61,269 nt of DNA, from the NCBI GenBank assembly GCA_052033375.1, contig JBPOJQ010000004.1, forward strand, positions 1 to 61,269, given 5' to 3'. Below the pieces are notes generated by a model. It saw only the letters and a program-made list of their open reading frames with translations. It was not told where the DNA came from and made no database searches. Of this stretch, positions 2-21,654 are shown one piece after another. The translations under genes and the position numbers were made by a program. The number at the start of each line of letters is the position of its first letter. Position 1 is the first letter of the stretch. The DNA is from Candidatus Magasanikiibacteriota bacterium (GTDB lineage: Bacteria > Patescibacteriota > Patescibacteriia > Magasanikbacterales > UBA922).

Positions 2-3000
2 ATTGAATGACACCGTAACTTCTTGTGACTTGGTGTATTGTGCCCCCTCATTGATAAGGATGAGTCCTGAAGGATTGTTTGGTGTTGAGGATGGAGTGGA
101 GGAGGAGGTGGTGACGGGAGGAGGTGGTGGTGACGATCCGCCACCAGATGACGCTTCGAGAGTCGTGATAACGAGTGGACTTGAATATGCGCTCTCATTG
201 CCATAGTTATCTACTGCTTTTATTTGGAATGTATATGGTGTCGCCATTAGCAAACCTGCAAATGTTGCCGATGTTTCGTCTGTTTCAGTCAACACATCAG
301 AAATAGTCGAAGAGACAACATAATACGAAACCCCACCAACAGTATCCCATGAAAGTGTAATTGACGTCTGTGTTTTATTTGCAGAAAGAGATGGAATTTG
401 CGGTGCCTGTAGCGGATTATCGACTGATACGATTCCTGAAACACGCGTACCCTCTACTTCACCATCATAGGGCGTCATGAATACACAATAGTCCCCTTCC
501 TCCCCCGGCTCATCGATATCTGCACGCCAGCTTGTAGTCGCAAGAGTAATCGGATAATCAGCGGAGCCATTAATAGTCAATTCAATCTGTCGATTATCCA
601 CTGCGGAATTATCAATTGAAGTAGTGTAGGTTGATGTTGCAGTCGTCGTAGAAAACGTCGTATATGCAGTGCCCGTATAGCTCGCACAACTACCTAGCTT
701 ATACTCCGCCTTAATCGACACAGTGTCCCGATCTCCATCAAAAAGATGGAAATTGGTATATGGCTCAGTCGACGCTGGAATAGATACATCAAATATGAAA
801 AACCCATTCCCATTAAAACTAGTGAAAAAAGCTGTGTCATCTACGACATTTACTGCCAGTGGAGTATTCATCTCTGTGGATCGCACAACAAAACTTCCTA
901 TCAAGGATGTTACTAATGGATTTGAAATATCATAAACTGCGAGACCTCGATTTTCTCCACCAAAACTCACATACGCATAATTTCCAGATACAGCTACCGC
1001 ATTCGGGCTGGAAAGAAATGCTAGATTTGGTCTTGGGTCGCCCCTCGCAATTCGTACAATTTCAGGAAGTGTTTTATTCGTCACATCGATAACCACAAGT
1101 GCATGATAATCAGGGCCAGTAGCGTAGACATAATTTCCAGACACTGCAATAGAACCAGTGTTATCAAGAATAGTAGTATCCTTCACTCCACCAACTATTA
1201 CTGGATTCTCTGGATCAGAGATATCAATAATTCGAACACTTGAATCCAGTGTGTTCACCACGTACGCATAATTTCCAGATACAGCTACTTCACGCGCTCC
1301 ATTCAAATTCACTGAATCTACAATACCACCGACGATTACCGGATTCTCTGGATCAGAGATATCAATAATTCGAAAAAAGTCAGCTAAACTCACTACATAC
1401 GCATAATTTCCAGATACAGCTACTGCAGTCGCACCTGCAAGATTTACATTATCTTTAATCCCACCAACAATTACCGGATTTGTCGAGCTCGATATATCAA
1501 TTACACGGAGACTATTATCTCCAAATGTTGTGACATATATATAATTTCCAGACAGAGCAACATCGCCAACATTTTGCAACGCTGAATCATCTTTGACACT
1601 GCCGACAATTACCGGATTTGTCGAGCTTGATATATCAATTACTTGTACACTGTTGTCAGCGTAGCTCGCTACATATGCATAATCCCCTGAAACAGCAAAA
1701 CCAATCGCTTGATTGAGCGCAGTCGATGATACGAGCGAGCCAATGAGTCGAGGCTGATGAAAATTCAGAAATAATTCAGGTGCCTCATTTGCTTTTTCAA
1801 TACTTGCAACTCCAACTTCTGCAGCTGCAGCAGATAATCCCCCACCGTCTACATGAAGACTCGAGGTCGTAAAATTAGTACCATTTGCATAAATATGATT
1901 TACAAAAATACATCCTCCTCCACCTCCTCCATATTGTGTTGGTGCAGGATCAGGATCCACTCCATTATCTCCTCCCCGAGCAAACACCTCGCCACTTCCC
2001 TGAATCGTTGGTGCATACAGTCTGACTGCACCACCCGCCCCAGCACCAGAAATTGACTCAAACACTTCGCCTCCGACAAAAAAATCAAATGCTCCGTCTT
2101 CACCATCTGCATATATGTCACCGTCCAACGTGATTGATGTGCTTGCAACCAACCAAACCAATCCACCACCATCGCCACCACCCAACCCCACACCTCCACT
2201 AAAATAACCTGAGCTACCACCAGACCCGAGGGTCGCAGGAAGTGTGGCAGTACAGTACGCAGATCCACCAGGCCCTGCATATGTCCCTGCATCAACGCTC
2301 GCAGTACCATCTCCCCCATGCCCCGCTCCTGATGCAGTGACTGCATCAACATATACCCCTGCCCCAGGTCCACTCCCATCATTATTCCCTGTCCCACCTT
2401 GAAACCCCTTTCCAGTTACATTGACAGTACCCCCTGCCGCAATTGAAATACTATTCGCTTGTATATACACCATTTGGGTTTGTTCATTATTTGTTTCATT
2501 TTCTGAATGTGTGACGGTACCACCAGATGCAATTTCAAAGGTATCAAACCGAAGCGGAGTAGAAGATGAAAAATCATGCAGTACTAATGTTGCATTACTA
2601 CCAACTACCATATCAAGCGTAGCTGATTCACCCGTAGCATCATCTACAAATTCTGGTCGACGTGTAACACTTTCATTATATACTTCAATAGTTACATGTT
2701 CGATACTCGCACCTGAAGTAAACCGTCCGACCACATCTCCCTGAAAGCGCACCGTCCCCGAAGGACTACTGCCATCAAATGGATACGCGCCAGTAAAAGA
2801 AGCACTGCTCACCCCTGTATTTTCAGAAATAATATATACTGCAGAGGTCGCGACTGATACCGAAGTCAACTCCTCAGTACCCGATATAAAATCAGTCCTT
2901 GCAGTAGCAAACGATTGATCAATACCATAGCTTGGTGTAGTGGTCGCAGTCAGATACATGTTTCGAATTGTCTGGTCTACTTTTTCTACCAGTGCAACAC

Positions 3001-19677: not shown

Positions 19678-20247
19678 TTGAATATGCCTCTCTTAGCAAT
19701 TTTACTAATTGTTGCAGGTGTTATAGTGCTTTGGGTAATTGCTCTATACAACAGTCTTATTCGGTTACGCAATCGAACACAGGAAGGCTGGAGTGATATT
19801 GATGTACAGCTCAAACGACGTCATGATCTGATCCCGAATTTGATTGAAAGTGTCAAGGGATATATGAAACATGAGCGAGAACTGCTTGAAAATGTTACCA
19901 AATACCGAACTGCTGCAATGTCTGCCCAAGACAGCGGAGATACTAAAGCACTTGCCTCAGCTGAGAGCATGCTTGGAAGTACTCTCGGAAAATTACAGAT
20001 CGCTGTTGAAGCATATCCAGACCTCAAAGCAAATACGAATGTTGCACAATTGATGGATGAATTATCTGACACTGAAAACAAAATTCAAGCATCACGACGC
20101 TTCTACAACGGCATGGTACGTGATTTCAATACTAAAATTGAATCATTCCCAAATAACATGATTGCCGGTCAGCTCAAGTTCACTAAGTTTGAATATTTTG
20201 AAATTGAGGATGCGAAAGAGCGAGAGAATGTAAAAGTGCAGTTCTAA
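19678..20247 (+). CDS. lemA: LemA family protein
   Basis: YNSLIRLRN..WSDIDVQLKRRHDLIPNL, EAYPDLKAN, SRRFYNG. Confidence 0.95.
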   Translation: MNMPLLAILLIVAGVIVLWVIALYNSLIRLRNRTQEGWSDIDVQLKRRHDLIPNLIESVKGYMKHERELLENVTKYRTAAMSAQDSGDTKALASAESMLGSTLGKLQIAVEAYPDLKANTNVAQLMDELSDTENKIQASRRFYNGMVRDFNTKIESFPNNMIAGQLKFTKFEYFEIEDAKERENVKVQF

Positions 20248-20248
20248 A

Positions 20249-20760
20249 TACGTTCGAACTTACGAACTAGTGCCAAAAATACGAAATAATATGCGGGAGG
20301 GACATATTTATTACGAAGAAATGATTTGTTATATCCTGAATTAAGTTTTCGTATTAATGGTATTCTGTATGAAGTCGCTCGTGAATTAGGTGGAGGTCAT
20401 CAGGAAAAATATTATCAAAAAGCGGTGGCTATAGGATTGCAAAATCAACAAATAAAATTTCAAGAATAATTTTACGCTCCTCTCGCATTTCAAGGTGAAC
20501 AGGTGGAAAAATATTTTCTTGATTTTTTAGTAGAAGATAGCATTGTGATTGAACTCAAACGAGAATTATTCATACCTCGAAAAATTATTGAATAGACGTT
20601 TCGATACCTCCAAGCCTTGGATCTCCAACTCGGCATTATTGCCTGCTTTACTAATCAAGGTGCTATCATAAAGAGAATTATTAATCAGCGATCAGTAAAA
20701 TAAAACTACTTCTAAAATTAATTTTCATACTTTCGTATTTAGTTCGTGAGTTCGAACGTA
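20249..20760. mobile_element. Inverted-repeat-bounded GxxExxY cassette inserted between lemA and htpX
   Basis: Left end tacgttcgaacttacgaacta..aaatacgaaa (20249-20286) is the inverse of right end tttcgtatttagttcgtgagttcgaacgta (20731-20760). Confidence 0.7.
20291..20703 (+). pseudogene. GxxExxY (PD-(D/E)XK-like) protein pseudogene
   Basis: LRRNDLLYPELSFRINGILYEVARELGGGHQEKYYQKA..YFLDFLVEDSIVIELK..YLQALDLQLGII; in-frame TAA at 20467 and TAG at 20593; ATG 20291 is out of frame. Confidence 0.85.
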
Positions 20761-20772
20761 AAAGAAATAATT

Positions 20773-21654
20773 ATGTATTCCCAAATTGATTCAAACAAAC
20801 GAAAGACTAGAATGCTGATTGCAATTTTTTGTGCATTCATCATTGGACTCGGCGTGCTTGGTGCAAGTTATCTCGGCCTGGGATACGAGTCTGTTCTCCT
20901 CGCTTTCATCATCTCGATCATCATGACCCTAGTGTCGTATTACAAAGGTGATGCAATTGCACTCCGATCCACCGGTGCCAAGGAAATCAGCAAAGAAGAT
21001 AATCCCTATGTGTATCGCATGGTCGAAAACCTCGCGATTGCAAATGGTATGCCGACACCGCGTGTACACATTATTGATTCTCCTGCACTGAATGCATTTG
21101 CGACTGGACGAGATCCCGAACATGCTTCAATTGCAGTCACCACAGGATTGATCAGTGCGCTTGAAAACGAAGAACTCGAAGGAGTGCTTGCACACGAACT
21201 GTCACATGTGAAAAATTATGATATTCGCGTCATGACAATCGTTATTGTCCTGGTTGGCACCGTTACACTCCTCGCAGACATGTTTTTTCGATTCGGGCTC
21301 TTTGGAGGCAAACGAAATTCTGATAATAAGGGCGGCGGAGGAATTCTTGCTATTGTCGGACTAGTACTCATTATCCTCTCCCCTATCATCGCGGAACTTA
21401 TCAAGCTAGCAGTATCACGAAAACGTGAATATCTGGCTGATGCATCGGGTGCACTCATGACACGTTATCCCGAAGGGTTGGCAAAAGCATTGGAAAAAAT
21501 TCAGCAATCAAATATACCTCTCAAAACGGCAAATTCTGCGACTGCGCATTTGTTTATTTCAAATCCGTTCAAAGGAAAAATGTTTGCTAACGCGTTTTCA
21601 ACACATCCGCCGATTGAAGAACGAATTAAGAGATTAAGAGAACACGTAACTTAA
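20773..21654 (+). CDS. htpX: Zinc metalloprotease HtpX (M48)
   Basis: NAFATGRDP, GVLAHELSHVKNYD, SRKREYLAD, STHPPIEERI; start reassigned to MYSQI. Confidence 0.95.
   Translation: MYSQIDSNKRKTRMLIAIFCAFIIGLGVLGASYLGLGYESVLLAFIISIIMTLVSYYKGDAIALRSTGAKEISKEDNPYVYRMVENLAIANGMPTPRVHIIDSPALNAFATGRDPEHASIAVTTGLISALENEELEGVLAHELSHVKNYDIRVMTIVIVLVGTVTLLADMFFRFGLFGGKRNSDNKGGGGILAIVGLVLIILSPIIAELIKLAVSRKREYLADASGALMTRYPEGLAKALEKIQQSNIPLKTANSATAHLFISNPFKGKMFANAFSTHPPIEERIKRLREHVT

Follow-up and report, generated by a model that had tools for sequence, protein, structure and literature searches.

The window (the whole stretch of 61,269 nucleotides of Candidatus Magasanikiibacteriota DNA that was analysed) contains, between the membrane-stress genes lemA and htpX, a fossil member of a class of repeat-armed GxxExxY cassettes: a dead gene of the PD-(D/E)XK nuclease type, enclosed by two inverted arrays of short phased units. 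Comparison with related loci indicates that these cassettes are a real and widespread class, resembling a tiny mobile element in their behaviour; no published description of them was found in the literature searched. Our reading, by analogy with known nuclease and repeat systems, is that the window probably holds a degenerating cassette whose live relatives encode a nuclease that would read its own phased arms, with the unit persisting and occasionally relocating.

All features of the locus are on the + strand and the cassette has the same orientation as both neighbours. The lemA gene (19684-20247; PF04011, 196 bits) encodes 187 aa from the ATG at 19684, has an alternative TTG start at 19678 in the ORF listing and ends with the TAA at 20245-20247. 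The left arm (20249-20290), defined by repeat finding and by alignment to the intact orthologue of a related assembly (L081), begins 1 nt past this stop and consists of TACG, unit 1 (TTCGAA, 20253-58), unit 2 (TACGAA, 20261-66), the degenerate unit 3 (GTGCCAA, 20270-76) and unit 4 (TACGAA, 20280-85). It is followed by the GxxExxY pseudogene (20293-20703, terminal TAA at 20701-03) and by the right arm (20722-20760), again defined by alignment to L081, in which the units are read as reverse complement: the degenerate unit 4' (TTCATA, 20724-29; TTCGTA in L081), unit 3' (TTCGTA, 20732-37), the degenerate unit 2' (TTCGTG, 20743-48) and unit 1' (TTCGAA, 20751-56), then CGTA. The right arm finishes 12 nt before the ATG of htpX (20773-21654; NF003425, 346 bits; PF01435), which encodes an M48 zinc metalloprotease of 293 aa; the 12 nt in between, aaagaaataatt (20761-20772), are a remnant of the native spacer and identical in L081.

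The arm ends at 20249 and 20760, next to the lemA stop and the htpX start, agree in position and sequence with the earlier note on this DNA. Its description of the ends as inverted repeats is correct in that the arms are near-mirror images built of short units, but they are more than a plain inverted repeat: in each arm, four TACGAA-type units follow one another in phase, at start-to-start distances of about 8, 9-11 and 8-10 nt. The bracketed 'gtgccaa', which had been taken for an insert, is in the alignment to L081 the decayed third of the four units; in total, three of the eight units of the window are damaged. Repeat finding gave an arm length of 38 nt, and a 20-nt core of the arm occurs exactly twice in the 61 kb, in inverted orientation. 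Shuffled sequence expects 0 matches, which rules out a chance inverted repeat. No second copy of the cassette and no gene-less array were found within the 61-kb window, and neither was any rRNA; the cassette sits between two protein-coding genes. That the arms abut stop and start codons was dismissed as a meaningful signal, since the small native spacers (1-60 nt) force any insertion to abut both genes. Inside the window's cassette there is neither a promoter-like site on the + strand nor a terminator, whereas a promoter-like site is present upstream of lemA; read-through is therefore the most likely source of expression for the cassette ORF.

The gene between the arms belongs to the GxxExxY family, as had been proposed from its GHQEKYY motif (20395-20415): with both in-frame stops read through as X, it matches TIGR04256 with 80 bits (cut-off 35) and PF13366 with 76 bits (cut-off 22). 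It is the sole ORF of the cassette, and the element is thus transposase-free, as predicted. PF13366 has no function assigned (PMC3424549). The family is large: a phmmer search with a single query returned 3,582 cluster representatives (50% identity clusters). Some members of about 265-277 aa (P0175, P0178, P0184 and others) have two tandem GxxExxY domains. A D-ExK triad (D77, E87, K89) is invariant across 29 aligned homologues and kept in the window (codons 20521-23, 20551-53 and 20557-59). No solved structure related by sequence was found; the top PDB matches to an AlphaFold2 model (pLDDT 90.8) are Cas4 SSO0001, MGME1 and lambda exonuclease, all with TM-scores around 0.5. A live cassette is predicted to encode a Cas4/RecB-like nuclease of the PD-(D/E)XK type, about 136 aa long.

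The window's copy, however, is not a working gene but a pseudogene, with its start lost and two nonsense codons. Compared with a 91%-identical orthologue (P0003), the start codon has changed from ATG to GCG (20293-95), a CAA has become TAA (20467-69; Q52 of the partial translation P0001, Q59 of the full-length P0003) and a CAG has become TAG (20593-95; Q94 of P0001, Q101 of P0003). Both stops hit conserved glutamines: in the alignment of 29 homologues Q101 is invariant and Q59 is at least 90% conserved. Independent assemblies rule out sequencing or assembly errors: in three runs of the probable source sample, Logan contigs span all three lesions and show 0 differences to the window, and a contig from a second sample, covering the TAA stop only, likewise has 0 differences. 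Because dN/dS between the window and L081 is 0.09, the gene appears to have been under purifying selection until recently, and its inactivation appears recent relative to the divergence from L081.

The architecture is not peculiar to lemA-htpX. With 80 further loci taken from metagenomes, 85 related loci could be scored, and these gave 58 distinct cassettes with paired arms (arm alignment score of at least 35), with protein identities of 47-100%. Elsewhere, arms of the window's type show a strong and specific association with GxxExxY genes, and intact GxxExxY genes with arms were found in other genomes. The units are of several types, among them TACGAAA, TACGAAT, TACAGAT, TACTAAT and TACAAAT, and their phasing is similar: in the 27 cassettes with four recognisable units per arm, successive units start at intervals of 7-8, 9-11 and 7-9 nt, and two spacings (7, 9 and 8 nt; 7, 10 and 8 nt) account for 32 of the 54 arms. 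In 530 kb of control Patescibacteria DNA, four-unit arrays are present only at one further lemA-htpX cassette (L006) and as a remnant in one lemA-htpX spacer. A Bacteroidota gene and a Berkelbacteria gene have the same inverted-array framing. The four-unit pattern had no match in IMG/VR that would indicate carriage by phages.

The 58 distinct cassettes occupy 27 junction types, for example pilB-pilC, tgt-SPOUT methyltransferase and a site downstream of GDP-mannose dehydratase. No consistent target-site duplication was found across them, and the window shows only low-complexity AAA on each side. Where both neighbours are co-directional, the cassette is in sense orientation at 15 junction types and in antisense at 2 (p = 0.002; 39 versus 2 when counted per cassette). 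Several loci have more complex arrangements: three tandem four-unit arrays upstream (L098, 1-200), doubled arms of about eight units (L091, 1310-1382 and 1956-2028), a whole gene-less hairpin next to the cassette (L121, 534-630), or three left and two right arrays (L170, 1339-1496 and 1899-1981).

Movement can be followed in one case, the only one, and between genomes that are about 90% identical rather than near-identical strains. Two groups of related genomes (L141, L142 and L143 versus L140 and L144) have the same cassette, at 93% nucleotide identity, at two different positions of the type IV pilus operon: pilB and pilC enclose it in L141, and in L140 it follows pilC. Between L140 and L141, the pilB 3' end has 96.8% identical nucleotides and pilC has 89% nucleotide and 90% protein identity, and the TAATG overlap of pilB and pilC in L140 is the empty pilB-pilC site. 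When the two regions are compared (L140:1-1921; L141:995-2919), the similarity breaks exactly at the outer arm ends, CCCTACGAA...TTCGTAGG. The comparison of these sequences shows that, in this lineage, the gene and its arms relocated as a unit. For the window's copy, only inheritance is observed.

In a live cassette, a gene about 410 nt long, for which no own promoter-like site was detected, lies between inverted arrays of four phased TACGAA-type units. We propose that its nuclease would recognise the phased units of the arms around it, in the manner of Ssn nucleases and RAYT transposases with their flanking repeats, and that the arms would pair as hairpin or duplex. Gene and arms would persist, and occasionally relocate, as one unit, and would be expressed when transcription of the host operon reads through them. 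Pairing of the arms in the transcript may bring the stop on one side and the start on the other together again, so that the operon could tolerate the insertion. A more far-reaching version is rather doubtful: that each cassette is a minimal selfish element, autonomous and about 0.47-0.55 kb in size, whose sole protein, a Cas4/RecB-like nuclease with some 130 aa, reads the four phased units of either arm and moves or maintains gene and arms together, that the PF05635 '23S rRNA IVS proteins' head a parallel class of like design, and that lemA-htpX of Magasanikbacteria records invasion, long vertical persistence under purifying selection, decay (in the window) and clean loss.

Among the closest published parallels are the Ssn GIY-YIG nucleases, which are flanked by the NTS repeats that they cut (NTS/SRM repeats; Chenal et al. 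2025, PMC11893778). Both systems have a gene for a small single-domain nuclease with its own short hairpin-forming repeats on both sides, both are spread across phyla, and in both the repeat variants follow the protein variants. However, Ssn is a GIY-YIG protein (cd10448) and the cassette protein is PD-(D/E)XK by fold and HMM; the NTS is a single hairpin motif with hundreds of dispersed copies, whereas the cassette arm is a phased four-unit array with no dispersed copies in the window. Site-specific cleavage of single-stranded DNA is proven for Ssn (PMC11893778), and binding or cutting of the arms by the PF13366 protein is suggested by analogy.

RAYT genes are flanked by REP repeats or terminal inverted repeats (PMC3733652) and resemble the cassette in that a single-copy enzyme gene lies between inverted repeats or long terminal inverted repeats on which the enzyme is thought to act, in their position between co-directional genes and in the existence of gene-less hairpin copies. 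RAYT is, however, a HUH/Y1 transposase and its REPs are tagged with GTAG/CGTC, whereas the cassette lacks a Y1 domain and has TACGAA units. Transposons with multi-site terminal inverted repeats, and MITEs, share with the cassette several phased units in the ends that look like binding sites, discrete boundaries and the presence of one lineage at two sites, but the cassette lacks a transposase of the DDE, HUH or serine type, shows no consistent target-site duplication and, in the 61-kb window, gives no evidence of multiple copies. The coexistence of intact, decayed (the window) and empty sites among related genomes resembles the life cycle of homing endonucleases; unlike these, the cassette has no intron or intein context and many different target sites.

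Clues to what the arms are kept for come from how they evolve. The two arms of a cassette covary: 94.3% of the cells are paired, compared to 80.6% in shuffles (0 of 500 shuffles match this value), and double changes are seen at 18 of 32 pairs. The stretches between units are more similar within a cassette (identity 0.73) than between cassettes (0.50; p = 2e-4), and the unit cores have 3.9% mismatches versus 15.5% in the between-unit stretches, a measure that is partly circular. Only about 14 of the 768 pair cells are wobble pairs, compared to 108 cells with Watson-Crick double changes. There is no excess of G:U among the mismatches either, as 36 are G:U-compatible in the sense RNA and 44 are A:C, and 143 of the 223 arm mismatches are transversions. 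Because of the conservation of the cores, the Watson-Crick-only complementarity and the missing G:U excess, this pattern points to conserved motifs combined with DNA-type complementarity, or with one arm copied from the other. It speaks more for arms that are recognised by a protein, or as DNA, than for a stem selected in the mRNA.

These data bear on the explanation that the earlier note had preferred, namely that the cassette resembles an intervening sequence. On this view the arms would be kept as a double-stranded RNA stem, and RNase III cleavage, or looping-out of about 450 nt, would be the selected function. The ends are indeed predicted to pair in RNA, as had been suggested: the fold of 20249-20760 has a 21-bp terminal stem (20249-69 with 20740-60) in both the MFE and the centroid structure (z = -3.6), in which the sole mismatch is a U:G pair, and an additional inner segment of 10 bp. 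In the predicted structure the stem would place the lemA stop beside the htpX start, a plausible reason for why the insertion is tolerated, and the corresponding stem at pilB-pilC would restore the native stop/start overlap. Sense orientation and the absence of an own promoter imply co-transcription, and a 212-nt contig from a soil library matches the window exactly at 20179-20389, from the 3' end of lemA through the left arm into the 5' end of the ORF; the library is labelled 'metatranscriptomic', but the contig shows no cut at the arm, its origin from RNA or DNA is uncertain, and the environment differs from the wastewater source.

The 23S rRNA intervening sequences of Coxiella, Leptospira and Salmonella resemble the cassette as inserts of about 0.45 kb with terminal inverted repeats and a stem of about 28 bp that has one mismatch and a bulge. 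The parallel goes further in Coxiella, where the intervening sequence has a 28-bp terminal stem and tandem GACAGAT heptamers upstream of a decaying ORF and is excised by RNase III (PMC4990558): tandem heptamers, a small decay-prone ORF and vertical inheritance are common to both. In addition, genes for the PF05635 '23S rRNA IVS protein' are present at lemA-htpX in three other loci (L035, L059 and L066; at about 2500-3000 in the locus), in cassettes whose arms are made up of short repeats and begin immediately behind the lemA stop. The arms of two GxxExxY loci (L123 and L146) have TACAGAT units that are near-identical to the Coxiella heptamers (PMC4990558); the Coxiella ORF is the unrelated PF05635.

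The likeness to intervening sequences has substance in the architecture, but the evolution of the arms does not suggest that the RNA stem is what was selected. Intervening sequences are inserted in helix 25 or 45 of the 23S rRNA, the cassette at an operon junction in mRNA; their ORF is PF05635 rather than PF13366, and the cassette arms lack an RNA-type wobble signature. The rarity of wobble cells next to so many Watson-Crick double changes fits complementarity at the DNA level or concerted copying, a stem needs no conserved phased cores, and an inverted repeat in antisense pairs equally well, leaving the orientation bias unexplained by the stem. We therefore consider a selected RNA function of this type unlikely.

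The history of the lemA-htpX site argues for a long residence of the cassette. Among 80 Patescibacteria loci, lemA is directly upstream of htpX in 73, in agreement with the view that the two genes are commonly adjacent, and the spacers of these 73 junctions are mostly 1-130 nt long; the more distant Patescibacteria thus mostly show an empty allele. The best match of the window's HtpX to species-representative genomes has only 72-73% identity, but LemA and HtpX together are 93% identical to those of two Magasanikbacteria assemblies (L081 and L082). The closest homologues of the GxxExxY protein in a collection of 5.8 billion proteins are all encoded between lemA and htpX. Intact orthologous cassettes with homologous arms are present at lemA-htpX in L081 and L082 (P0003, 91% protein identity), L083 (P0004, 74%) and L085 (P0012, 66%), and further orthologues, likewise with homologous arms at this junction, in L006, L095, L100, L104, L107 and L120. 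Since intact orthologous cassettes fill lemA-htpX in the nearest Magasanikbacteria, the window's copy is, by this comparison, evidently inherited and not newly inserted, and a recent insertion is ruled out by the orthologues at 91, 74 and 66% identity. The previous description of an insertion into the lemA-htpX operon therefore holds relative to the ancestral short spacer, but not as a recent event. Many contigs (L003, L008, L009 and other 'binchicken' MAG records) are labelled 'uncultured Gammaproteobacteria'; their LemA and HtpX place them in Patescibacteria and the labels are probably wrong.

How often the site was occupied is less clear-cut. In the LemA+HtpX tree the cassette loci cluster, yet empty loci are intermixed and at least three changes are needed. 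In the maximum-likelihood tree of the GxxExxY proteins, the copies from the lemA context fall into about four groups, but a single clade of lemA-htpX proteins is not rejected by the AU test (p = 0.18 and 0.51), and we therefore do not claim independent repeat invasions. One old insertion with later losses is compatible with these trees, and intact, decayed (the window) and empty states of lemA-htpX are all seen among related genomes.

Window and L081 share a block of high identity (20006-20845; 85-97% of the nucleotides, compared to 75-83% in the remaining parts of lemA and htpX), and synonymous divergence is two to three times lower in the cassette than in the flanking genes (dS 0.48 versus 1.0-1.6). 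The block outruns the left arm by about 250 nt and the right arm by 85 nt, and horizontal transfer of the cassette alone between the two lineages was therefore rejected; the block looks like an ordinary tract of homologous recombination.

A long vertical persistence under purifying selection would also fit a host-beneficial gene. The GxxExxY protein could be a domesticated component of the lemA-htpX stress operon, for instance a regulator or nuclease that binds flanking operators, and could have been lost in the window's lineage. This agrees with the occupation of lemA-htpX across relatives with 51-91% protein identity, with the low dN/dS (0.09-0.18), with the single origin that the AU test leaves standing and with the start codon, which often abuts or overlaps the innermost unit and suggests autoregulation. 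A domesticated gene is however difficult to reconcile with a cassette type that turns up in no fewer than 27 unrelated kinds of junction (among them those of pilB-pilC, tgt-SPOUT and GDP-mannose dehydratase), has a patchy distribution on the host tree, has relocated within an operon in one lineage and is dispensable in the organism of the window. We regard domestication as quite improbable.

The lemA-htpX junction also houses other small genes, likewise at about 2500-3000 in the locus. In L016, a DUF559 endonuclease-like gene lies between GGGGAGGGG hairpins; in L040, a fragment of an IS200-like Y1_Tnp gene is flanked by inverted repeats. The seemingly 'empty' spacers of 120-280 nt (L004, L009, L001, L015, L011 and L022) are gene-less inverted-repeat hairpins, with TTCGTAA...TTACGAA in L004, AGCTAA units in L009 and a TACAAA array in L015; in L001, four TTACTAAT units close the spacer and adjoin the ATG of htpX. 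These gene-less hairpins may be orphan arms or remnants of cassettes.

The Y1_Tnp fragment in L040 and the gene-less hairpins in L004 and L009 are also what would be expected if the arms were ends for an enzyme that acts in trans, such as an IS200/RayT-like Y1 transposase, with the GxxExxY gene as a mere passenger, and PF13366 has no known catalytic role in movement. However, in the DNA examined TACGAA-type arrays occur essentially only beside GxxExxY genes, the unit sequence shifts with the protein lineage (TACGAAA, TACGAAT, TACAGAT, TACTAAT), and a Y1 gene is absent near the cassettes examined, which makes a passenger role very improbable. That the gene is intact and its host decodes TAA and TAG as glutamine, as the position of both in-frame stops at conserved glutamines could suggest, is practically impossible and was excluded: lemA, htpX and the cassette ORF itself all terminate in TAA, the adjacent ORFs are long and normal under table 11, the orthologue has CAA and CAG at the two positions, and the start codon is lost too.

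Our preferred reading, a degenerating cassette whose live relatives encode a nuclease that would read its own phased arms, would have consequences for the family and for the organisms that carry it. The lemA-htpX junction links PF13366, a very large family, with rRNA intervening sequences and their small ORFs, the origin of which has been a question since 1990. It also provides matched material: an intact protein with its cognate arms (P0003) and a naturally dead orthologue with damaged unit cores. If the nuclease reads its own phased repeats, the cassettes would be a new nuclease-plus-repeat system, with a fold other than those of Ssn and RAYT, and the protein might then serve as a sequence- or structure-specific nuclease. 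For annotation, such cassettes account for many of the oversized intergenic spacers in the streamlined CPR genomes.
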